17,927 bases of DNA from positions 1-17,927 of the IMG/VR virus record IMGVR_UViG_2585427748_000008. One strand, given 5' to 3'. Below, piece after piece: positions 1-15,795 of this stretch (its first letter is position 1; the number at the start of each line of letters is the position of its first letter). The notes beneath the pieces were generated by a model, which was given only the letters and a program-made list of their open reading frames with translations, was not told the DNA's origin and ran no database searches. This DNA comes from a virus (taxonomy: Duplodnaviria > Heunggongvirae > Uroviricota > Caudoviricetes). The translations under genes were made by a program, and so were the position numbers.

Positions 1-266
1 CGCATATTATCGGCATCGATAAAGCAGCGGGTGCCTTCATCTGCAAGATCTTTAGAATAACGGGTAAAGTCATCGATGCTGGCAGTGGAAAGCGCACCAC
101 GGAAACGGAAGCGATTTAAATTAAATTTTTCCAGATCATGAATGCGGAAATTCTCAGGCAATGCCACAGCATCGGCACCAATCTTACTGATAATTTCATT
201 AACACCCTGAGCAGAAATAAGGGCATGGATTTGATTAATTGCGGTTGCGTCTAAGTTCTGAGACAT
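1..266 (-). CDS. Prophage early-left protein, 5' part only (gene runs off the window start); possibly DUF2303/YfdQ-like
   Basis: ATG at 266-264 (minus) preceded by GAGGA 7 nt upstream; open frame to position 1 giving [26 protein letters not shown]...; not in the ORF track because it has no stop in the window. Family assignment is from memory only. Confidence 0.6.
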
Positions 267-331
267 AATAAGTCCTCACTATATTAAGATATTCAGTGAT
301 GAGATAAATAATCAGTTAATTAAGAACGATA

Positions 332-694
332 TTAATGACCTGCTGCGCGGAGTTTTCCGTCAGGTTCACCGGCAAGAGTCAGTAATTGTCCCTGGTCTTC
401 CTGCAGAATAGTCAGGCGACCACCTCGATTGACATACATCGGCGTTTCGGTGGTGTCTTCTTCGGAGATTTTCCCGCGGTTAGTCGGGCGAACATATGAG
501 AGTTTGTGTTTGATTTTCACACGGTTCTCATCAAACGGTTCGATGTCCAGATTGACCGAGACTTTACCTTTGTTTTTCGTGTTCATCACACCGGAAGCGA
601 CTTCACTGAGAACTGCGCCGAGTTTGGTTTCAAATACGCCGCCGTCCAGTTCTACGATAAATACCTGCACATCAGTACTGCGTACGCTAGCCAT
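332..694 (-). CDS. Hypothetical prophage early protein, 120 aa
   Basis: Internal ATG (MASVRSTDVQVFIVELDGG...) of the 332..925 minus ORF, preceded by GAGGAG 9 nt upstream; the 77-codon upstream extension translates the GC-rich structured region and looks non-protein-like. Confidence 0.6.
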   Translation of the reverse strand: MASVRSTDVQVFIVELDGGVFETKLGAVLSEVASGVMNTKNKGKVSVNLDIEPFDENRVKIKHKLSYVRPTNRGKISEEDTTETPMYVNRGGRLTILQEDQGQLLTLAGEPDGKLRAAGH

Positions 695-830
695 TTTGCT
701 GCTCCTCATCATACCGACCCTGCAAGGTCGGTTGGTTTCTCCACAAAACAGAGAAGAACACCTGCGGTGACAGCCGCCCGGATGGATTGGGTTATGAGCC
801 CGTCGTCCGGTGATGCTCTTCTCTGTTTTG

Positions 831-877
831 TAAAAAGAGCGGTACCAGCCGGAAGCAAGGGTACAAACTGGTACCGC
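831..877 (-). terminator. Terminator-like hairpin in the early-left leader (10-bp stem GCGGTACCAG/CTGGTACCGC, 19-nt loop) followed on the minus strand by TCTTTTTA
   Basis: Perfect inverted repeat 839-848 / 868-877; the minus-strand 3' flank is T-rich and resembles a boxA-like CGCTCTTTTTACAA. Confidence 0.35.
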
Positions 878-1350
878 CAAAGCAGTGGCTGTTGTGGTGG
901 GGTTGTCACTCAGGCGTATGGTCAACCTGACAATCCGGTGTCCTCAACGGGGAAAGAGTACCCCCGCCATACTTACCGCCGCGCCATTTCGCGGATTACC
1001 ACAACGCTGAGAGCACTTAGCCAGTTACGGCACCACACTTTGTCGCGGTTCCATAAATGCCCTCATCGTTGCACCCTGGTCTCTTCCCAGGCGTCAAACC
1101 GGATCGCCACGCTGGTTAGGCGTCTTATCAGCATCATCATTGACTTGCACATTCCGGCTACCTGGTTTGTTTGCCCGAGCAAGGAGTGGATTGTCCCCTT
1201 TAACGTCACCAGACCGCTAACGACGCATGTGCCATACGCCGTGTTACAACCAAATTTTGTTAGTACCTTGTTTGTATGTCTGGAAAGAAAGATAAAATGA
1301 AGTTGCGCATTATGCAAGTGTTTTTATTGCGAGATATGCAATTTGGTGGG

Positions 1351-1396: not shown

Positions 1397-2089
1397 TTAA
1401 TTGTGTCGCTTAAGGGTTTGTGACTGACTGATTAAGACCTTTCCAAAGACCATAAACCGATGTTCGTTTTCGCTGGTAATTCCCCATTCGCGGTAAATCT
1501 GATTATCAGAAATTACCAGCAGTTTATCAGGTATCATTTGCAGTCGTTTGACGTAAATTTTATCATCAAAACCAAATACATATATACCATCTCCATCAAA
1601 CTGATTGATACTGATATCAACGAAGATGAGATCTCCTGGCTCAATGGTTGGACACATACTGTCCCCACGAACGTTGATAACTTTAATGTGATTGGCTGGC
1701 CGTCCGCCAAACATCGATACAGCATTATCAGTTCTGTATTCAATGGCATGAATCACATCAATGACATCACCGCCCTGGATAAGGCCATTTCCCGCACTGG
1801 CACTGACATCCAGCATTTCAATACGGAATACATCCTTCACCTGCGCAACATCCTCACCAATACTGTTTTTACATACAGTATTACTTTTGACGTCTGAGGT
1901 AAAGAGATCAGCGATATCAACACCTAAGCTCCTGGCAATATTACTCAGGGCTTGTTCAGTGAATTGTTTCTGCTTACCTGTTTCCAGGCGTGAGATATTC
2001 GCCGCATCCACTCCTATTGCTTCAGCGAGATCGGCGATTTTCATGTTCTTCGCCTGGCGAAGTTGTCTGACTCGGTTTCCTATGTTCAT
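1397..2089 (-). CDS. cI: cI-like prophage repressor (N-terminal HTH, C-terminal S24 LexA-type autopeptidase domain)
   Basis: 230-aa ORF; N-terminal HTH-like segment (RQLRQAKNMKIADLAEAIGVDAANISRLETG); Ala-Gly site in SASAGNG; GDSM serine motif and downstream KR (YVKRL) consistent with S24 Ser/Lys dyad; divergent from the Cro-like gene across an operator-rich spacer. Confidence 0.9.
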   Translation of the reverse strand: MNIGNRVRQLRQAKNMKIADLAEAIGVDAANISRLETGKQKQFTEQALSNIARSLGVDIADLFTSDVKSNTVCKNSIGEDVAQVKDVFRIEMLDVSASAGNGLIQGGDVIDVIHAIEYRTDNAVSMFGGRPANHIKVINVRGDSMCPTIEPGDLIFVDISINQFDGDGIYVFGFDDKIYVKRLQMIPDKLLVISDNQIYREWGITSENEHRFMVFGKVLISQSQTLKRHN

Positions 2090-2186: not shown

Positions 2187-2447
2187 ATGCAATCACCATT
2201 ACGGAATGTGCGTAAGGCGCACGGATTTACTTTGCAGCATGTTGCTGCGGGCGTTCAGGTCAATCCAGCGACGCTGAGTCGTATTGAAAGACTGGAACAA
2301 ATTCCATCTATCGATCTTGCAGAACGTCTGGCCAATTTTTTTAAGGGTGAAATCAGCGAAATGCAGATTCTTTATCCGGCACGTTTTCAATCTAGCCAAA
2401 ACCAGAATGGGTTTAAACCACAGGAACAGGAGGTAAGCCGTGGGTAA
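2187..2447 (+). CDS. cro: Cro-like HTH regulator (Cro/YdaS-type)
   Basis: 86-aa ORF starting 5 nt after GGAGG; HTH-like segment GFTLQHVAAGVQVNPATLSRIE; position directly opposite cI. Confidence 0.75.
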   Translation: MQSPLRNVRKAHGFTLQHVAAGVQVNPATLSRIERLEQIPSIDLAERLANFFKGEISEMQILYPARFQSSQNQNGFKPQEQEVSRG

Positions 2448-2997
2448 TCATCACTGGAAAGTGGAAAAACAGCCTGAGTGGTACGTGAAAGCTGTCAGAA
2501 AAACTATCGCGGCGTTGCCGGGGGGTTACGCTGAAGCTGCTGAGTGGCTGGATGTAACAGAGAACGCATTATTCAACCGCCTTCGTGCAGATGGCGATCA
2601 GATTTTCCCGCTGGGATGGGCAATGGTTTTACAGCGTGCGGCTGGCACTCACTACATTGCGGATGCTGTCGCACAGTCTGCTGGTGGGGTGTTCGTATCG
2701 CTTCCTGAAATTGAGGCAGTAGAGAACGCCGATATAAACCAGCGCCTGCTGGAAGTCATTGAACAGATCGGCAGTTATTCCAGACAGATTCGTTCAGCAA
2801 TCGAAGACGGTGTAGTGGAACCGCATGAGAAGACAGCAATTAACGACGAACTGTATCTTTCAATTTCGAAGCTCCAGGAGCATGCAGCACTGGTCTACAA
2901 AATCTTCTGCGCTCCAGAAAAGAGTAACGCCCGCGAGTGTGCAGCTCCGGGCGTCGTGGCGTCGATTGCTTCTGGTTGTGGAGAAACTAACGCATGA
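2440..2997 (+). CDS. CII-like / YdaT-family early regulatory protein
   Basis: GTG start preceded by AGGAGG; 185-aa ORF overlapping the cro stop by 8 nt; sits at the cII position; family call from memory. Confidence 0.6.
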   Translation: MGNHHWKVEKQPEWYVKAVRKTIAALPGGYAEAAEWLDVTENALFNRLRADGDQIFPLGWAMVLQRAAGTHYIADAVAQSAGGVFVSLPEIEAVENADINQRLLEVIEQIGSYSRQIRSAIEDGVVEPHEKTAINDELYLSISKLQEHAALVYKIFCAPEKSNARECAAPGVVASIASGCGETNA

Positions 2998-4139
2998 ATA
3001 GTTTAACGGCAAATAACCGTTTGTCGCAACAGCTGGTGGTCAGCGTCGCTGAACACCTGTTGTTACGGCATGAATGCAGATTACCAAATCACCTGGCTGT
3101 AAGTAACCACAGAGAACTTTACCTGACTGTGGGGGGCGAGTTGTGCAGGAACTTAACCGCTGGTTTCGTGACGGAAGAGGGCTTTATGTCCATGTTATTC
3201 GTTGGGAGCCAGAAACACAGCGCGTTATCTATCTTCGCAAAGACTACCCGCATGAGTGCTTTAGTCCTTTGTGGAAATTCAGGCGTGATTTTGTTGAGTG
3301 TGAAGGACCACCAGCATATTGATTCTGCAATTCCGGGACGTTACACTGTTCAGGCACCTTATAAAGCGGGTGCCGGGATTGGCGTCCTGAAATTCGCACA
3401 TGCGCATAACCGCGCTTCAGCGGTTTTTTTGCGCACGTTTCCTCACATCCAAATTATGGTGGGGCGTGCAGGGGCATCGAAAGATGCGCCGGGGTCATGT
3501 GCGACCGGTTACGCCAACCCTGTACGTCTCACCACCTCTGTGATTGGCGTCCCATGTGGTGAGTTTTCAAAATTCGCACATGAGGATGTCACTATGGCAA
3601 CCACCCCTACCCAAACTCACCCTAAAATTGATGTTATCCATGGGAAGGCTGTTACCTCTTCTTTGGCCGTTGCCGAATATTTCTGCAAGCAGCACAAAAA
3701 CGTTATTCAAAAAATCCAGACGCTTGAGTGCTCTGTTGAATTCACTGAGCTGAATTTTCAGCCCAGTGATTACACCGATTGCACAGGCCGCAAACTCCCT
3801 TGTTACCAAATCACCCGCGACGGTTTTGCGTTTCTTGCCATGGGCTTCACGGGGAAACGTGCTGCCCGGTTCAAAGAGGCATACATCAATGCCTTTAACC
3901 AGATGGAGAAACAGCTTTCAAATCCCTCTGTACTGAGCGACGTTGCACATAACGCCAGCGTTCTCTATTCCTACATTTCATCAATTCATCAGGTCTGGCT
4001 GCAGCAGCTTTATCCCATGTTGGCAAAAGCCGAATCCCCGCTGGCTGTAAGTCTGTATGACCGCATCAACGACGCGGCGCTACTGGCCAGTCTCATAAAT
4101 TTGTCGCTGAACCCTTCAGAGGTAAGGGGGCGCAAATGA
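2994..4139 (+). CDS. Rha-family phage regulatory protein; Rha domain in the C-terminal ~182 aa, with a likely independent start at 3594
   Basis: Frame is open for 381 codons from an ATG overlapping the upstream stop (ATGA). Residues from 3594 (MATTPTQTHPKIDVIHGKAVTSSLAVAEYFCKQHKNVIQKI...) look like a Rha N-terminus and have GAGGA 7 nt upstream. Coding status of 2994-3593 is uncertain (see findings). Confidence 0.6.
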   Translation: MNSLTANNRLSQQLVVSVAEHLLLRHECRLPNHLAVSNHRELYLTVGGELCRNLTAGFVTEEGFMSMLFVGSQKHSALSIFAKTTRMSALVLCGNSGVILLSVKDHQHIDSAIPGRYTVQAPYKAGAGIGVLKFAHAHNRASAVFLRTFPHIQIMVGRAGASKDAPGSCATGYANPVRLTTSVIGVPCGEFSKFAHEDVTMATTPTQTHPKIDVIHGKAVTSSLAVAEYFCKQHKNVIQKIQTLECSVEFTELNFQPSDYTDCTGRKLPCYQITRDGFAFLAMGFTGKRAARFKEAYINAFNQMEKQLSNPSVLSDVAHNASVLYSYISSIHQVWLQQLYPMLAKAESPLAVSLYDRINDAALLASLINLSLNPSEVRGRK

Positions 4140-9026: not shown

Positions 9027-9383
9027 ATGCGTGATATGTATGAAGTAATGGATCGTTGGGGAGCTTGGGCTGCTTCAGACAATAGCGGAGTGGACTGGCA
9101 GCCGATAGCGGCTGGTTTCAAGGGACTTTTACCTCATGGCAAAAAGTCACGGATTCAGTGTGATGATGACGAAGGCATCATGATAGACAGTTGTGTGGCT
9201 CGGTTGAGAAGGTATAAACCAGAGGAATATGAGCTCATCATCGCCCACTTTGTTATCGGTATCTCATTACGTACTATTGCGAAGAAGAGAAAATGCTCTG
9301 ATGGCACAATTAGGAAGGAACTGCAAACTGCAATGGGGTTTGTTGACGGCTGTTTAGCAATGTTAGCTTATAGTATGGCATAA
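9027..9383 (+). CDS. Q: Late-gene antiterminator Q (phage 82/21-type family)
   Basis: ATG with GGAGA 6 nt upstream (track start 9012 is an upstream TTG); MRDMYEVMDRWGAWAA...WQPIAAGFKGLLP...CSDG pattern typical of this Q family (from memory); last gene of the nin-like region. Confidence 0.75.
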   Translation: MRDMYEVMDRWGAWAASDNSGVDWQPIAAGFKGLLPHGKKSRIQCDDDEGIMIDSCVARLRRYKPEEYELIIAHFVIGISLRTIAKKRKCSDGTIRKELQTAMGFVDGCLAMLAYSMA

Positions 9384-10577
9384 AAAATAAAATAGATTTA
9401 CTGCCGATTTTTCAAAAAAGACTGGGAACTGTTTATATCCAACGTAAATAAGGCCTCCATAAAACATGGCTGATGCGAGATATTTAACAGTTCTCATCCT
9501 TTTTTTAGCTTTATCAATCAAACCTGTAATGCTACTCTTAATACTATCTGCATTATCTTTGATTTCTTTATTTTCTTCAAACTTTAAATACTTATCGAAA
9601 GCGGACTCCACTCGAGAACGTAAGTTGTCGAATGTTTCATTGAATATCTCAATAGAAATGTAATTGACTTTTTTTATCATCCAAAGTCCTGCGATAATCA
9701 ATATTGCTTCGGTTGTTTCATTAGCCTTCACTAAGCCACCAGCAGCTATTAATGCACCGGGAATAGTCAATGCTTTTGTCTGATTAGATGATATGAATTC
9801 GTTAATTTTACTCGTGAACTCAAGATTTTTCTCATCGAGTTCGTTAAGAATTTTATTTACAGAAAACCTCTTTGTGTAAATCTCATATAGTTCATCATAT
9901 TTTTTCCTGACGAGTTCAGTAGAGTTAAGCAAGTCAAAGAAATTGAACGTACCATTTGCTTTAAATACTTCGTTTATGGCTGAGCGTATAACGAGCTTGC
10001 GCTCGCTTTTGTGTAAATCATTGATTTTTATTGTGTCGAGAAGCTCCTTTATAATTTCATATTTAAGAGACGAGTTCGATAAGCGATTAATCTCGCTATA
10101 TTGTAAAAAATGCGTGAGTTCGACTGTATAACTTTTGTCTTCATTGGTGAAAAATAAGACAGAGCAGTCACTGTTATGATGATCAGCAATTAATGAAAGG
10201 ATATCTTTCCACATAAAGAAAATATGGATTTTTTCGATGCTTTCATTCTTAGAAGTAGGGAGTATTAACGGCGTTCCGATGATATAATTTTTCGGAAGAG
10301 CGTTTTGGGTGTTTACTCTAGACCAAAAAGACTCAACATTCTCATAAATTATAGCGTCATCCCAAGATGAAGCTTGGCGATCTAGCCAAATTTCATTATT
10401 TTCGATGCAGGTTGTTGCCTTTTTATAACCTATAGATTGTAACAGTCTAATTATTTCAGAACTATTTACAATAACAATGCTTTCTTCAAGACTTATGACA
10501 GTGTAGTAGCCCTCAACTCTGCTTGAGGCTCCGTTAATAATCTGCGCTAATCTTGATAAGTCATCAGCAATTGTCAT
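9363..10577 (-). CDS. Hypothetical protein with hydrophobic C-terminal segments (predicted membrane protein); second gene of an AT-rich cassette
   Basis: 404-aa ORF; start 2 nt after the stop of the upstream cassette gene; hydrophobic stretches ALTIPGALIAAGGLV...AILIIAGLWMI and YLASAMFYGGLIYVGY; sampled GC ~28-42% versus ~58% in flanks; 3' end overlaps the Q 3' end by 21 nt. Confidence 0.7.
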   Translation of the reverse strand: MTIADDLSRLAQIINGASSRVEGYYTVISLEESIVIVNSSEIIRLLQSIGYKKATTCIENNEIWLDRQASSWDDAIIYENVESFWSRVNTQNALPKNYIIGTPLILPTSKNESIEKIHIFFMWKDILSLIADHHNSDCSVLFFTNEDKSYTVELTHFLQYSEINRLSNSSLKYEIIKELLDTIKINDLHKSERKLVIRSAINEVFKANGTFNFFDLLNSTELVRKKYDELYEIYTKRFSVNKILNELDEKNLEFTSKINEFISSNQTKALTIPGALIAAGGLVKANETTEAILIIAGLWMIKKVNYISIEIFNETFDNLRSRVESAFDKYLKFEENKEIKDNADSIKSSITGLIDKAKKRMRTVKYLASAMFYGGLIYVGYKQFPVFFEKSAVNLFYFLCHTIS

Positions 10578-10579
10578 TA

Positions 10580-11755
10580 TTAGCTGTCTCTATATCTTTT
10601 GAGTTCATCATAATTTGCCTGACTCAATTTTATCACAATTTCGCATTTGTTGTCAGTGAGAATTACAGGCTTATTTGACTTTTCGTCTCCAATAGCTCCA
10701 CGCATTATTTTCAACTTAAAATTATTGTCGTTATCTGCCACTTCAATTGTAAGCGCGCTTTCAGCTGCTTTAGGAGTTGGTTCAAATTGAGGGTCAATCT
10801 GGAAACCATTAAGATTAACAAAATCGACAAACGTTCCCTTACATTTGTGTGAATCAGTCAGGCATGAGTCAATTATTTTTGAAATATCCTCTATCTTAAC
10901 GGACTTATTTCCGTGTTTATCTTTTGATTTTTTTTCCAGTAAGGATTTAACTTCATTGTCAATAGTATCACGCAGTACACGACCGAGTGAGTTTTTACTA
11001 GCAAAAATATCTATAGCACTGAATAATTGCTGAATGCTTCTTTTATTGTCCGAATCATGTCGGCAACCTAATGAGTCTTTGAAAAAATCGCTTTTAGATT
11101 TACCTTGCAAGAAATGTACATATGAGTCACCCTTGTTTTCTGGATAACTGGCTTCGAATAAAGTTAAATCGAACATCGCAGCCTGCCGTAAGGCATCGGT
11201 ATTAATTGGATTTAATCTTGTTGGGGTCAACTTATCCGAATCAAAGTCATAGGCGCTTTGTTTATCAACCATTACGATTAGAAGTTTCCCCAAATCCTCT
11301 GGTTCGGTAGACTTATAGTGGATGAAAACAACGCTCCCCCCCTGAAGTTGGGCAACTCTCGATTCGTTATTAGCATTATGTTTAAGCTTCTCTATTATAG
11401 CTCTAGATAAATCAATGAATTCATTATTTTTATTAATGTATTTTTTTAGGATCGTAGGAATGGATGAAGGGTTGTGATCTGAGTCTAGGAAGTTATGAAA
11501 TTTGTTTTTTCGGCTAAATTTTTTCTCAATTCTGGTTATGAATTCAGATGTGACTTCATTTTTTAGATCCCAAACTTCACCTAATCGATAATCAAATGCT
11601 CTTGAATCATTTTTTTCAAGATTTGCTGTTACAGCACCAATAGGAAAGTACGATTGTTTGCCCAGCACTACAACATGAGGCGTGGCACCGCATTTATCGC
11701 AAGCTACAGTTGGGTCGTCAAGAACATTGCCACATTCTAAACAAGTTATATCCAT
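10580..11755 (-). CDS. Hypothetical protein with N-terminal CxxC-X10-CxxC zinc ribbon and NdpA/YejK-like (NA37) region; first gene of the cassette
   Basis: 391-aa ORF; Cys at residues 5, 8, 19 and 22 (CLECGNVLDDPTVACDKCG); GGSVVFIHYKS and YVHFLQGKSKSDFFKDSLG resemble motifs I recall from nucleoid-associated protein NdpA (unverified); a TATAAT hexamer lies about 12 nt upstream of the ATG on the minus strand. Confidence 0.7.
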   Translation of the reverse strand: MDITCLECGNVLDDPTVACDKCGATPHVVVLGKQSYFPIGAVTANLEKNDSRAFDYRLGEVWDLKNEVTSEFITRIEKKFSRKNKFHNFLDSDHNPSSIPTILKKYINKNNEFIDLSRAIIEKLKHNANNESRVAQLQGGSVVFIHYKSTEPEDLGKLLIVMVDKQSAYDFDSDKLTPTRLNPINTDALRQAAMFDLTLFEASYPENKGDSYVHFLQGKSKSDFFKDSLGCRHDSDNKRSIQQLFSAIDIFASKNSLGRVLRDTIDNEVKSLLEKKSKDKHGNKSVKIEDISKIIDSCLTDSHKCKGTFVDFVNLNGFQIDPQFEPTPKAAESALTIEVADNDNNFKLKIMRGAIGDEKSNKPVILTDNKCEIVIKLSQANYDELKRYRDS

Positions 11756-12353: not shown

Positions 12354-13067
12354 ATGGCTGTTGTCTGTTCAGTTATCATGGTTTGCTCCCCAATTAATAT
12401 TTTTCTTGAAAAGGATACGTTGTCACTTAAGCCAGGCTCAGTTGTTCTGGCCACCAAATGCATCAGGGAGCTTTTCCTTATGCATTATGGCAAAGTTAAA
12501 ATTGTCGATATAAGCGAATCCGTCGTAAGTCAATATCTGGAAAGTCAGCATAAGCTGACGAGGACTCGTCTGACTGACATTCCGCTTTACCTGTTGCTGG
12601 AACCCAACAATCCTGCGTTGGCTGCGGCTTTAATTACCAGCCAGGGATTTTCCGGAGAGGCCACGGATATGTTTCTTATGATGGCCTGCCTGTCTCTGTT
12701 TGAAACAGATGAACGGATGTCATTGTTTTTAAGTGGATGTTTATCCAGCATAAGTGCCAAAGTCAGGGCGATAATTCAGACAGATATATCAGCAAGCTGG
12801 ACGCTTGGTGCGATTGCTCTACAGTTGCATATGAGTGAGAGTTTGTTAAAGACAAAACTGAAAAATGAAGGGGGCATGTTCAGTCGCTTGTTGCTGGAAG
12901 AGCGGATGCGTGTTGCTGTAAATATGTTATGTTCCCGGCATGGATATGGACAGGCTATAGCAGAAAAATGCGGTTATTCAAGCAGGTCCTACTTTATTTC
13001 TGTATTTCACCGCTATTATGGCTTCCCGCCAGACAGATATGTATCCAGGCAAGGGCTTGATTATTGA
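12354..13067 (+). CDS. AraC-family transcriptional regulator (AppY/GadX-like prophage regulator)
   Basis: 237-aa ORF with C-terminal AraC-type HTH (WTLGAIALQLHMSESLLKTKLK...AIAEKCGYSSRSYFISVFHRYYGFPP); a TATAAT hexamer sits at 12314-12319 upstream. Confidence 0.8.
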   Translation: MAVVCSVIMVCSPINIFLEKDTLSLKPGSVVLATKCIRELFLMHYGKVKIVDISESVVSQYLESQHKLTRTRLTDIPLYLLLEPNNPALAAALITSQGFSGEATDMFLMMACLSLFETDERMSLFLSGCLSSISAKVRAIIQTDISASWTLGAIALQLHMSESLLKTKLKNEGGMFSRLLLEERMRVAVNMLCSRHGYGQAIAEKCGYSSRSYFISVFHRYYGFPPDRYVSRQGLDY

Positions 13068-13384: not shown

Positions 13385-13833
13385 AAATGTCTCACAATTC
13401 AGGCGGTTGACTGTTGTCTGGTTTGCGGGGAGTTTGTTAAAAGAAACTGGCATGGTGAATCCCCCTGTGCGGAGGGGCAATCAGCGAGTAGGTATATGGG
13501 ATAATCGCGGATTCAGGTGCTGGTACTGAATTCACCGGGAGGCACCCGGCACCATGCAATGGCACATAGTGCCACTCTCCAGCCCCTCTCCGGAGGGGCT
13601 TTCTTATGGACAAAAAAAGCCCGCGCAGGGAGACGCGGGCGGCAAGGAATAAACAACAAAACGTGAAGTAATATTTCAGCTGGCGAATAATATCCGACAG
13701 TAATCACTCTGCGCAATAGCGCGGCCTTTTTCGTATTGCGGGCTGTTGTCTATCTTCTGCCATTGTCCTGTAACTTCCGGACTTCAGCCCGCTCCTCATT
13801 TTACTCACAATATTATCCAGGCCGGGAGGATTC

Positions 13834-15795
13834 ATGGCATTTAAACACTATGACGTGGTCAGGGCGGCGTCGCCGTCAGACCTTGCGGAGCGACTGACAC
13901 AAAAACTGAAGGAGGGGTGGCAGCCATTTGGCAGTCCGGTGGCCATCACGCCTTATACCCTGATGCAGGCCATTGCGGCGGAAGGTGATGTCACCACACC
14001 TGTGGTGGTGAAGCCGTCGGATGGAGAAGGCGCAGTTATCAGCACCACCAGCAACCCGGAGTATTACTTTGTTGTTGCCCTGGCCGGGCAGTCAAACGGT
14101 ATGGCGTATGGTGAAGGGCTTCCGCTGCCGGAGACATATGACCGTCCGGACCCGCGTATTAAACAGCTGGCGCGTCGCAGCACTGTCACGCCGGGTGGTG
14201 CGTCCTGTAACTACAATGACATTATTCCTGCGGACCACTGCCTGCATGATGTTCAGGATTTGAGTAAGTTTTCACACCCGAAAGCTAGCGCAGCTCAGTA
14301 TGGATGCGTGGGGCAGGGATTACATATCGCGAAGAAATTGTTGCCGTTTATTCCGGCGAATGCCGGTATTCTTCTGGTTCCGTGCTGCCGTGGTGGTTCT
14401 GCATTTTTGGCGGGCGATGAAGGTACCTTCAGCGAATCCACCGGCGCAAGCGAGACCTCGGCACGCTGGGGTGTAGATAAGCCACTGTACAAGGACCTGC
14501 TTACCCGTACTCAGGCCGCACTGAAGGCTAACCCTAAAAATATTCTGCTTGCAGTGGTCTGGATGCAGGGCGAGTTTGATTTGAAACAGGGTGCATACGC
14601 CACTCAGCCGGGGCTGTTTGATTCCATGGTGGAAAAATATCGTTCTGACCTGTCGGAATTCGGAGGTCAGTGTCTCGGGGGCTCTCCGTCATCGGTTCCC
14701 TGGATTTGTGGCGACACGACCTACTACTGGAAGCAGACTTATTCTTCGCAATACGATGCGGTGTATGGTGCATACAAGACGAAATCCGCAAAAAAAATCT
14801 TCTTTGTGCCGTTTATGACGGATGAAAACGGGCGAAATGTGGGTACCAACGAGCCGTCAGAAGATCCGGATGTTGCGGATATTGGGTATTACGGAGCCGG
14901 TGGTCGAACGGACGCCAAAACCTGGACGACGGCCGACCGTAAAACGCATTTTGGATCATGGGCACGTCGTGGGATTATTTCCGACCGTCTGGCAACGGCG
15001 ATTCTTGTGCATGCCGGGAGAACCGCTGAATTCATTACCGGAAAACAGCCTGATACGGTGAAGCCCACCGGACCTTCCGGTGAAGGTACGGAGAGAGAGC
15101 CGGAAGCCCCGGTCAGTAACCGAACCCTGATGAGTCTGCTGGCGTCCGGCGAAGACCTGGCATCACAGGGCTGGCGCTATTATCACAAACCGGCGAGCGG
15201 AGACAATGTTAACAAAAACATTGCTGAAGCGGTGGTCAGTGATGCGGGGGCTACGGGAGGTAAGGCCCTGCAACTGAATAAACCGGAAAACCACATCTGG
15301 TTTCTGGAGCATGATGCAGCCGGACAGGGAGTGGAGTTACTGAAGAAGGGGGGACGTGTGAGCGTACGGTTTAAGTTGCCGGGTTCACTGGTGCCGAATC
15401 GGTTTGCCCTGGGCATTTACTGGCAGTTGTCGTCCCTGCCGGAGGGAGTGACGCTGGCAGAGGAAGGCAACGACATGCTGATGTCCTTCTTCCTGCAGAC
15501 GGATGCGACGAACCTGAACGCGATGTACCACAAGAAGCCGAATGCGAAGCTGGATACGTTCGGGGTCTTTGATAACGGATGGCACACACTGGCTTTTGAG
15601 TTTGCCGGAAACAACAGCATTCAGGTGACGCCGGTACTGGATGAGAAACGGGGGACGCCGTTCACACTGGTGAAATCTCCGGCATCAGGGGCGGCGGACA
15701 AACTGCAACTGACAGGCATATCAAAGGCGGCGACATATACGCTGCTGATTGACAGTGTGAAGGTGGAAGTGAACAACGCGGATGCCGCGGCATGA
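13834..15795 (+). CDS. nanS-p: Prophage sialate O-acetylesterase NanS-p (N-terminal DUF1737-like region, SASA/SGNH esterase core, C-terminal extension)
   Basis: 653-aa ORF with GGGAGGA RBS; the AGQSNG motif (FVVALAGQSNGMAYGEG) is typical of the sialate O-acetylesterase catalytic site; sits where nanS-p lies downstream of stx in Stx phages. Confidence 0.85.
   Translation: MAFKHYDVVRAASPSDLAERLTQKLKEGWQPFGSPVAITPYTLMQAIAAEGDVTTPVVVKPSDGEGAVISTTSNPEYYFVVALAGQSNGMAYGEGLPLPETYDRPDPRIKQLARRSTVTPGGASCNYNDIIPADHCLHDVQDLSKFSHPKASAAQYGCVGQGLHIAKKLLPFIPANAGILLVPCCRGGSAFLAGDEGTFSESTGASETSARWGVDKPLYKDLLTRTQAALKANPKNILLAVVWMQGEFDLKQGAYATQPGLFDSMVEKYRSDLSEFGGQCLGGSPSSVPWICGDTTYYWKQTYSSQYDAVYGAYKTKSAKKIFFVPFMTDENGRNVGTNEPSEDPDVADIGYYGAGGRTDAKTWTTADRKTHFGSWARRGIISDRLATAILVHAGRTAEFITGKQPDTVKPTGPSGEGTEREPEAPVSNRTLMSLLASGEDLASQGWRYYHKPASGDNVNKNIAEAVVSDAGATGGKALQLNKPENHIWFLEHDAAGQGVELLKKGGRVSVRFKLPGSLVPNRFALGIYWQLSSLPEGVTLAEEGNDMLMSFFLQTDATNLNAMYHKKPNAKLDTFGVFDNGWHTLAFEFAGNNSIQVTPVLDEKRGTPFTLVKSPASGAADKLQLTGISKAATYTLLIDSVKVEVNNADAAA

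Follow-up and report, generated by a model that had tools for sequence, protein, structure and literature searches.

Conserved, independently mobile RNA modules, one of them pseudoknotted, form the early-left leader of an N-less lambdoid prophage

The locus and its transcribed strand

The DNA analysed here, a stretch of 17,927 nucleotides (nt) that makes up IMG/VR record IMGVR_UViG_2585427748_000008 and is called the window throughout, is a lambdoid prophage of the E. coli type. The subject is the non-coding stretch of about 600 nt that separates its cI-like repressor gene from its yfdP-like gene. The analysis shows that 695-1300 is the untranslated 5′ part of a repressor-controlled early-left (pL) transcript read from the minus strand, and that this leader is a chain of four conserved, independently mobile RNA modules. 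One of them, module C, is a new conserved pseudoknotted RNA, previously undescribed. The leader is thus ordinary as a pL leader and unusual in its content. The genes and signals around it are as follows.

1-267, minus strand: start portion of a yfdQ/DUF2303-like gene
332-694, minus strand: yfdP-like gene, 120 amino acids (aa)
1303-1341, minus strand: operator-like repeats TTGCGCATTATGCAA (1303-1317) and TTGCGAGATATGCAA (1327-1341), the presumed pL region, from sequence reading
1359-1376, both strands: bidirectional terminator-like hairpin directly 3′ of the cI-like gene, from a terminator scan
1397-2089, minus strand: cI-like repressor gene (Pfam: helix-turn-helix and Peptidase_S24)
2187-2447, plus strand: cro-like gene
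2440-2997, plus strand: CII/CP76-like gene

Operator-like motifs of the form TTGCG-N5-GCAA are located at 1303-1317 and 1327-1341, immediately left of the cI-like gene, and a matching motif is found at oR (2110-2124). These motifs and their position to the left of the repressor gene indicate a leftward pL, and hence transcription of the minus strand. The best minus-strand promoter reading is TTGCAT-17-TATCTT with a start at about 1280; a simple promoter scan did not call pL. Similarity to phages of other immunity types ends at 1261, and 1262-1396 fits an immunity-specific promoter/operator block.

An earlier note, made from the letters alone, had described the stretch as GC-rich and structured, and that description holds: the GC content is 0.53-0.565 in 600-1200 versus 0.37-0.46 in the flanks, and the minus-strand fold of 695-1300 reaches -236 kcal/mol, compared with -201 +/- 7.8 kcal/mol for dinucleotide shuffles (z = -4.5). 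The repeat search recovered the inverted repeat that the note had pointed out, its 15 perfect base pairs (743-757/817-831) being the outer part of longer arms, as well as the perfect 10-bp hairpin 839-848/868-877, with 19 nt between the arms, followed on the minus strand by UCUUUUUA (read at 838-831). Each of these helices is kept in homologues with compensatory changes, which supports them as RNA helices.

A mosaic of separately mobile modules

A blastn search of 50,697 phage records showed that different parts of 695-1265 match different relatives. The part 695-880 has its relatives in SfV, SfII, SfIV and ST64B, the part 883-1005 in Rac/Qin-like phages and an Actinobacillus phage, and the part 999-1255 in phiV10/epsilon15-like phages, P1/P7, SPN1S and Klebsiella phages. 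The single leader structure of about 600 nt supposed at first gives way, therefore, to four separately mobile modules, each part with relatives of its own. Some part of the leader, mostly module B, is present in 4,768 of 5,426 complete E. coli genomes, and at least 80% of it in 1,030 of them; the RefSeq annotation of E. coli genomes has nothing at this place. The comparison with known RNA families that the earlier note had suggested was run with Rfam 15 on 600-1450, at gathering and permissive thresholds (E <= 10), and returned chance-level matches only (E = 1.7-7). A tRNA- or tmRNA-like identity of modules B and C was discarded, as ARAGORN found none, and retron, bridge-RNA and omega-RNA were likewise set aside, there being no reverse transcriptase, recombinase or TnpB gene nearby.

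Structure and conservation of module C

Module C occupies the promoter-proximal part of the leader and is built of the following elements.

999-1261, minus strand: module C, pseudoknotted RNA with its core at 1075-1241, from nhmmer, covariance model (CM) and covariation
1241-1221, minus strand: helix P1
1214-1209/1165-1160, minus strand: helix P2, enclosing a variable arm with a CCUU loop
1144-1162, minus strand: invariant single-stranded 19-mer GGUAGCCGGAAUGUGCAAG
1123-1109, minus strand: helix P4, with loop CUAACCA
1117-1114/1100-1097, minus strand: pseudoknot PK2, loop to downstream
1091-1075, minus strand: helix P5, with loop GGAAGAGA
1074-999, minus strand: 3′ extension hairpin, common to the phiV10 type

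The length of module C is roughly 190-260 nt. In the window it is matched by its nhmmer profile at 1042-1261 (E = 1.5e-55), and by R1, the CM of its 5′ domain, at 1141-1243 (82.7 bits). Six distant copies are enough to make the invariant core and the compensatory changes visible. The structure was derived by hand and then tested on an alignment of 99 distinct versions (226 nt, median pairwise identity about 62%). Its 30 pairs are formed in 97.3% of the cells, versus 87.5% in shuffles, with 281 cells changed on both sides versus 102; slid controls are 29-45% paired. Compensatory change is present in 12 pairs, and PK2 covaries without exception (CG 74 / AU 25). G-U pairs are frequent, from which it follows that the minus strand of the window is the RNA.

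The AUGUGC of the 19-mer is complementary to an invariant GCACAU in the P1 loop (1232-1227), making a second, possible pseudoknot, PK1, which gives no covariation signal because both of its strands are invariant. The 19-mer, in its DNA form GGTAGCCGGAATGTGCAAG, was the search pattern for retrieving module C copies; among copies retrieved with a pattern that excludes it, it is nearly invariant as well (15/17), and so is the GCACAU with which it would pair. No pairing that would join the 5′ and 3′ flanks of module C in a closing helix was consistent across subfamilies, and no Rfam 15 family matches module C.

Coding potential of the leader

Module C is non-coding. Of 75 indels between family members, only 21 have a length divisible by three, and in 22 close relatives the 23 variable sites are distributed 14/6/3 by phase, which fits no open frame. 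The antisense plus strand (1037-1262) is stop-poor, with 68% of the members open over at least 70 codons versus 37% of shuffles, and the open frame occurs in all three phases relative to the 19-mer (29/24/20). The open frame thus seems a by-product of RNA composition rather than a gene.

The statements of the earlier note that the leader has neither a convincing open reading frame (ORF) nor an N-like gene are borne out. On the minus strand of 695-1396 only short ORFs with weak starts are found, of 84 (TTG start), 66, 34, 26, 24 and 21 aa, without Pfam match or conserved frame, and the annotators of related phages disagree on strand and position or annotate nothing. At 128 loci, the ORF that comes next after module C differs from case to case, and none is N-like. 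Over the complete early region of mEp460, the only antiterminator annotated is Q-like, and a lambda-type nut site, that is, a CGCUCUUA-like boxA and a boxB hairpin with an Arg-rich N as first pL gene, is absent here. Phages with a yfbR-yfdQ-yfdP left operon have been described as devoid of N, and may use a put-like RNA (PMC12315714).

Distribution and genomic context of module C

The 19-mer search retrieved at least 119 IMG/VR contigs with module C, whose carriers include P1, epsilon15-like phages, Stx2c and Stx2a phages and about 1,000 E. coli genomes. It is confined to Enterobacterales (Escherichia, Klebsiella, Citrobacter, Enterobacter, Kosakonia, Kluyvera, Phytobacter, Pseudocitrobacter and Erwinia), and the invariance of 19 nt across this order is as expected for an interface with a conserved host machine.

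Three kinds of setting recur among the 128 loci. At 63 of them, including the window, mEp460, mEp390, cdtI and the Stx2c phages, a cI-like gene ends about 100-135 nt upstream on the same strand, and a cII-like gene diverges from it. About 29 are epsilon15-like, with a tRNA-Arg(UCU) gene that starts exactly 164 nt after the 19-mer, and about 17 are P1-like, where a tRNA-Ile2(CAU) gene ends 96 nt before the 19-mer and module C lies in the ban operon, between trnI and ban. Module C is always co-oriented with its operon and, in P1 and the epsilon15-like phages, with the adjacent tRNA genes too. No description of it was found in the literature searched, and it is unannotated both in the very detailed annotation of P1 and in RefSeq, over more than 1,000 genomes.

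Module B and the hairpin at the DicF position

Downstream of module C on the transcript lie module B and a terminator-like hairpin.

891-1005, minus strand: module B, from alignment with K-12-type Qin, PPompW, Evi and an Actinobacillus phage
1005-998/898-891, minus strand: closing helix of module B, GUUGUGGU / ACCACAAC
within module B, minus strand: inner hairpin UUGUCA..ACGCCUGAG..UGACAA
832-885, minus strand: DicF-position element UUUGGCGG, with stem-loop 877-839 (CCUU in the loop) and U-tract UCUUUUU at 838-832

Window positions 815-1010 align along their length with the ydfC-dicF region of the K-12-type Qin prophage (L257), in which module B is found at 2501-2607 and Rfam DicF next to it at 2633-2684. 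The 39 predicted pairs of module B are 95% paired in 96 sequences, and both the closing helix and the UUGUCA/UGACAA hairpin show compensatory changes. True DicF follows at most module B loci. What most E. coli genomes contain of the leader is mainly this unannotated element upstream of DicF, and the 'dicF-like region' annotated in P1 (68791-68892) corresponds to the inner hairpin of module B. Module B is also found, 86% identical, in vB_Apl-pPE4 (L254:1501-1616), which infects a Pasteurellaceae host and has a kil gene downstream of the module; such conservation across families is unusually high for non-coding DNA.

The hairpin 839-877 has a predicted energy of -20.7 kcal/mol and a tail, TCTTTTTA, with five U. 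It occupies the syntenic position of DicF, after the conserved upstream element, and in alignment with Qin and PPompW its stem-loop starts UUUGGCGGUA and ends CCGCCCUUUUU. It is the positional homologue of the DicF terminator stem-loop (UUUGGCGGUAcCAGUUU ... CCGCuCUUUUUA), not the put-like candidate. The boxA-like string CGCUCUUUUUACAA (841-828, minus strand) turns out to be the 3′ arm and U-tract of the terminator, and its homologues read CCGCCCUUUUUA/CCGCCC, not boxA. The element 832-885 is credible as a predicted intrinsic terminator and possible as the source of a small RNA (sRNA) derived from the 3′ end. The Rfam DicF model (RF00039), which scores 76.7 bits for true DicF in L257 and L255, has no match at E <= 10 in 600-1450 or 815-905, and the 5′ single-stranded seed of DicF, UUUCUGGUGACG, is missing from the window copy, which has a gap of 19 nt there. 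This part of the leader is a new and diverged version of a known locus, that of DicF. Hairpins of the type UUGGCGGU-stem-CCUU-stem-ACCGCCCUUUUUACA with covarying stems also follow module C in phiV10-, Klebsiella- and SPN1S-type loci, where they are placed after the tRNA; the Rfam model covers only part of a larger family of DicF-type terminator hairpins, in which other seeds occur.

A known RNA, STnc100, is found elsewhere in the window (13421-13611, 140 bits), after a tRNA trio. The elements at the module B position in ST64B (L251) and SfV (L253) have the STnc100 motif ACCGGGAGGCACCCGGCACCA in common and similar closing helices, GUUGUGGUG...CACCACAAC against GCAUGGUG...CACCAUGC, and score below the STnc100 gathering threshold.

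Module A and the start of yfdP

The last part of the leader reaches the start codon of the first gene.

743-831, minus strand: module A, long irregular hairpin with a conserved apical junction (CGACGGGCUCAUAACCCAAUCCAUCCGG), from repeat search and covariation
692-732, minus strand: small hairpin (732-713), Shine-Dalgarno sequence GAGGAG (708-703) and yfdP-like ATG (694-692)

The arms of module A (743-767/807-831) are 25 nt long and 84% complementary, with the outer 15 bp perfect. The hairpin is kept in SfV, ST64B, Flotzy and 97 distinct IMG/VR versions. The consensus from the DicF-position hairpin to the yfdP start contains 58 pairs, with 94% of the cells paired and 218 changed on both sides. 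Examples of compensatory pairs are AU64/CG29, GC82/CG14, AU83/GC12 and AU55/GC31 in module A and AU46/GC26/CG11 in the hairpin 732-713; the apical junction of module A (CGACGGGCUCAUNACCCAAUCCA) is invariant. Many of the pairs in module A are G-U, which would be mismatches on the opposite strand, and the minus strand is therefore the RNA strand.

All the module A copies examined lie between the terminator hairpin and a yfdP-like start. The inverted repeat, once considered part of a put-like candidate, is a separate conserved hairpin tied to yfdP, which may serve as a second terminator, as an RNase III-type processing site (on the model of the lambda N leader) or in the control of yfdP translation. 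The idea that the repeats are the ends of a miniature transposable element was abandoned: the copies occupy one fixed site upstream of yfdP, their arms show covariation and strand-specific G-U pairs, and the flanks (CTCC / AAAA) show no target-site duplication.

Related leaders contain further elements. A recurrent hairpin, CCACCGAGCCUGAUGUGGUGAAAAGACAGGCA, precedes module C in some species (L261, L266, L271) and occurs in the leaders of SfV (L253) and Flotzy (L252); it is another mobile leader module. ST64B, Flotzy and SfV have the yfdP left operon without module C and, just after pL, another conserved element, AACAGGCAGGACGCCCACGAAGUAGCCGCCGGUGGCAUACGAAUGACCGGAUGAUUCG, at the approximate minus-strand sites L251:2110-2175 (ST64B), L252:1940-2005 (Flotzy) and L253:2420-2490 (SfV). 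It comprises a covarying hairpin (CCGGU/ACCGG against CCUGG/CCAGG), has GUAGCCG in common with module C, and may represent a third class of pL-proximal RNA.

Proposed function of module C

Before its first gene, the pL transcript passes about 590 nt of structured RNA that include at least one strong predicted terminator. With such a leader and no N gene, either antitermination or leaky termination is required. We tentatively favour, as a possibility somewhat short of an even chance, that module C acts in cis like the put RNA of HK022 and HK639, so that RNA polymerase reads through the downstream terminators. The put RNAs act in cis on RNA polymerase, at the zinc-binding domain of its β′ subunit, suppressing pausing and termination. 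In the model, transcription from pL would first make module C, whose invariant single-stranded segments would bind the transcribing polymerase in the manner of put. The modified polymerase would resist the DicF-type intrinsic terminator, the following hairpin and later terminators, and the N-less phage would thereby express its early-left operon of about 7 kb. An unmodified polymerase would stop at 832, giving a leader RNA of about 450 nt, from which processing might yield a small RNA of the DicF kind, with a CCUU loop that could base-pair to Shine-Dalgarno regions.

The position of module C is that of putL in HK022 and HK639, and at 63 of the 128 loci it stands directly after the cI-like gene, in the promoter-proximal place, with no N-like ORF following. 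In phiV10, two terminator-like hairpins are located between module C with its tRNA-Arg gene and the next ORF. Also in favour are the covarying, conserved fold of module C and its short sequence motifs resembling those of put and standing in the order that put has. The put-like antiterminator proposed in the earlier note is thus defensible for the promoter-proximal part of the leader, but the candidate is 999-1261, which that note did not describe, and this candidate fails the profile and CM tests for put.

Several results weigh against this proposal. Module C is three times as long as put and has additional helices and pseudoknots. The 5′ duplex of put (A3-G7/C15-U19), with its minor-groove triplex and a G35-A9 platform, is essential in HK022, and neither the duplex, the triplex nor G35 is conserved in module C, which has UAUGGCA at distal stem I, U, C, A or UU/AU at the G35 site and a variable base before P1. 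An nhmmer profile of put, made from 31 sequences, detects HK639 (2e-22), HK022 putL (6e-22) and putR (E = 0.0035) and finds nothing in module C loci; conversely, neither the nhmmer profile of module C nor the CM of its 5′ domain finds a put RNA at E <= 10, and pairwise alignments of put and module C are weak relative to shuffles (p = 0.009-0.4). No second copy of module C is present downstream of pR, the best other CM match (11 bits, E = 0.18) falling in a coding region. Terminators downstream of module C are not discriminating, being found at 76 of 101 loci in sense and at 70 of 101 in antisense. In P1 the ban operon starts with a terminator-like hairpin, and module C comes 2.3 kb after that hairpin, with no terminator predicted in the 700 nt that follow module C. 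Finally, the direct adjacency to a tRNA gene on the same strand at 46 of the 128 loci also fits a processed, stable RNA acting in trans.

A stable trans-acting RNA, although doubtful, is the alternative to be taken most seriously. Here module C would be a non-coding RNA cut from the early transcript by tRNA-processing enzymes or RNase E, with its target in the host or the phage (it could, for instance, be a decoy for some conserved machine of the host) and without action on its own polymerase. Processing by RNase P/E at the abutting tRNA, whether the tRNA-Arg(UCU) that starts at +164 or the tRNA-Ile2(CAU) that ends at -96, would release module C. The elaborate fold with two possible pseudoknots and invariant loops speaks for such a role, as do the undetectable homology to put and the unrelated operon settings of module C: the ban operon of P1, a moron in the structural region of epsilon15-like phages, and the lambdoid pL. 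Against this reading, neither a promoter nor a terminator belonging to module C adjoins the core, no gene travels with module C as a target or partner, the downstream genes vary, and the promoter-proximal site after cI is strongly preferred.

We regard as rather unlikely that module C is unrelated to put and constitutes a new class of large, doubly pseudoknotted phage RNA with its own biochemical role. It might then act on a conserved host machine, as a decoy or as an effector, with RNase P/E, the ribosome and a tRNA-targeting defence as examples of such a machine, and be released by tRNA-processing enzymes and common to lambdoid, P1-like and epsilon15-like phages.

It is unlikely that the leader is mainly an sRNA locus, in which a DicF-like 3′ stem-loop RNA would be the product, modules C and B would be folding and processing scaffolds that set the 5′ end and the stability of the sRNA, and yfdP and the later genes would be expressed by leaky termination. 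DicF in Qin is made by processing and termination, and module B with its hairpin is homologous to the Qin ydfC-dicF region; true DicF follows most module B loci, and the UUGGCGGU...CCUU...ACCGCCCUUUUUACA hairpin accompanies module C in several phage types. But 19 nt at the 5′ end of DicF are missing from the window copy, which the Rfam DicF model does not match, module C occurs without such a hairpin (P1 type), and module B with DicF occurs without module C (Qin). Moreover, a pseudoknot of 190 nt with an invariant core seems more than a scaffold needs.

A sensor (a riboswitch, a thermosensor or a tRNA-binding leader) that sets early-left transcription or translation according to a cellular signal is improbable. 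A complex, conserved fold, in which peripheral arms vary around an invariant core, would suit it, as would the two pairings open to the P1 loop, the inner hairpin and PK1, which are mutually compatible or compete, and the loop ending in ACCA, which adjoins UGGCG. Nevertheless, no expression platform abuts the core, which a tRNA or module B separates from the nearest terminator, at a distance of 120-250 nt, and neither an association with any metabolic gene nor similarity to an Rfam riboswitch was seen.

A decayed N/Nun gene, a hidden small protein gene or a transposable element at the inverted repeat is very improbable, since the two longest minus-strand ORFs (84 and 66 aa), the small ORFs called by some annotators and the stop-poor antisense strand (68% versus 37% of shuffles) are set against the absence of a conserved frame (29/24/20), of indels in threes (21/75) and of a Pfam match, against substitutions that follow base pairing with strand-specific G-U pairs and, for the element, against covarying arms at a fixed place upstream of yfdP.

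Significance

Many lambdoid prophages have no N, among them Stx2c and some Stx2a converting phages, cdtI, mEp460 and the relatives of SfV and ST64B. For the passage of early terminators in N-less prophages, a survey of 2025 could only suggest a "put-like RNA" (PMC12315714). Module C supplies a concrete candidate that is widespread, has a structure open to testing and contains an invariant core of 19 nt; it is no simple put homologue. If it is an antiterminator that binds RNA polymerase, antitermination by RNA alone would extend from a few HK022-like phages to about 1,000 E. coli genomes, P1 and the epsilon15-like phages, and would bear on the induction of toxin-converting prophages.

Other features of the window

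Rfam isrK (3354-3430) and C4 antisense RNA (3452-3539) lie inside an ORF of 381 aa (2994-4139). The Pfam 'Ash' match of this ORF (aa 117-211, about nt 3342-3626) falls on the same stretch as the two RNAs, and a Rha domain follows it. Two explanations offer themselves: an over-called ORF start, or an Ash family that is in part a model of translated RNA genes. Among the rightward early and late genes, two minus-strand genes at 9363-11755 converge on the operon and encode a 404-aa protein without Pfam match and a 391-aa member of the NA37 (nucleoid-associated protein) family; the pair may be a moron or defence cassette. An AraC-family regulator (12354-13067) stands just upstream of a tRNA-Met(CAU)/Arg/Arg cluster, and a 653-aa DUF1737/SASA esterase/DUF6645 protein, NanS-p-like (13834-15795), follows STnc100. 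This layout of AraC, tRNA, STnc100 and NanS-p-like genes is typical of Stx-type phages; no stx genes were seen in the window.

Comparison with known systems

With the pL-nutL-N region of lambda, the locus shares a long structured leader from pL to the first early-left genes and a large hairpin before the first ribosome-binding site, which in lambda is an RNase III site. It differs in that there is no N gene, boxA and boxB are not conserved, and the boxA-like string is a terminator tail.

A second comparison is with the DicF locus of Qin. Module B is about 90% identical to the element just upstream of DicF, 839-877 aligns with the terminator stem-loop UUUGGCGGUAxCAGUUU...CCGCyCUUUUUA, and both loci belong to an operon of the early-left type, ahead of kil/dicB-class genes. 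The window copy, however, lacks the 5′ 19 nt (UUAUCAAUUUUCUGGUGACG), has another stem and a CCUU loop, and is not matched by the RF00039 model.

In P1, module C (71010-71194) and the inner hairpin of module B are both on the strand of the ban operon. The order of the modules is reversed, though, and they are 2.3 kb apart with tRNA and tci genes in between, module C abutting tRNA-Ile2 and ban in the unannotated trnI-ban spacer.

The literature on put names only HK022-like and HK639-like elements, that is, putL and putR of HK022 and the 'putL-like antiterminator RNA' of HK639 (NC_016158 34187-34312). Like them, module C is promoter-proximal on the pL transcript of an N-less lambdoid phage, lies upstream of terminators and has no encoded protein partner, and the two RNAs have short motifs in common, in the same 5′-to-3′ order. 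The first is an ACGGCG/CGUCG helix that has its G-U pair at one position in both RNAs and is followed by CAUG; the put bulge at this site inserts its U28 into the β′ zinc-binding domain. P1 of module C is CGGCG/CGUCG, with GU 55 / GC 39 at the G-U site and an invariant CAUG before it on the 3′ arm, which corresponds to the C26-G29 bulge of put. The base helix of put stem I is C10-G14/C30-G34 with G12-U32, and within the bulged C26-G29 U28 is essential (numbering as in PMC9378689). The second motif is RGCGG...CGG(C)AAUG(C)UGC; in module C an invariant AGCGG ... CCGGAAUG flanks P2, which resembles GGCGG / CGGCAAU of the put stem II internal loop but has one-base differences and another closing topology (PK1). 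Residues 59-64 of put are the centre of the interface with RNA polymerase, and G45 and A64 are essential. The third motif, ACGAYUYACCA...ACGGURNRAC, is found also in the HK639 putL-like RNA. The 3′ half of that RNA (CGAUUUACCAG and a hairpin; L130:6180-6245) recurs without put stems in the Enterobacter phages BHUENT6/ENT1, and after put in several IMG/VR contigs; its recurrence without the stems indicates that the HK639 element is itself modular.

Module C differs from put in its length of 190-260 nt versus about 74 nt (126 nt as annotated in HK639), in its single copy per phage and in adjoining tRNA genes in P1 and the epsilon15-like phages; moreover, the strand by which put closes its stem II would, in module C, be paired with the P1 loop. 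Because the put and module C profiles and the CM do not detect each other, module C is not filed as a put member; on present comparisons it would best be called an RNA outside the put family that is put-like in position and motifs.

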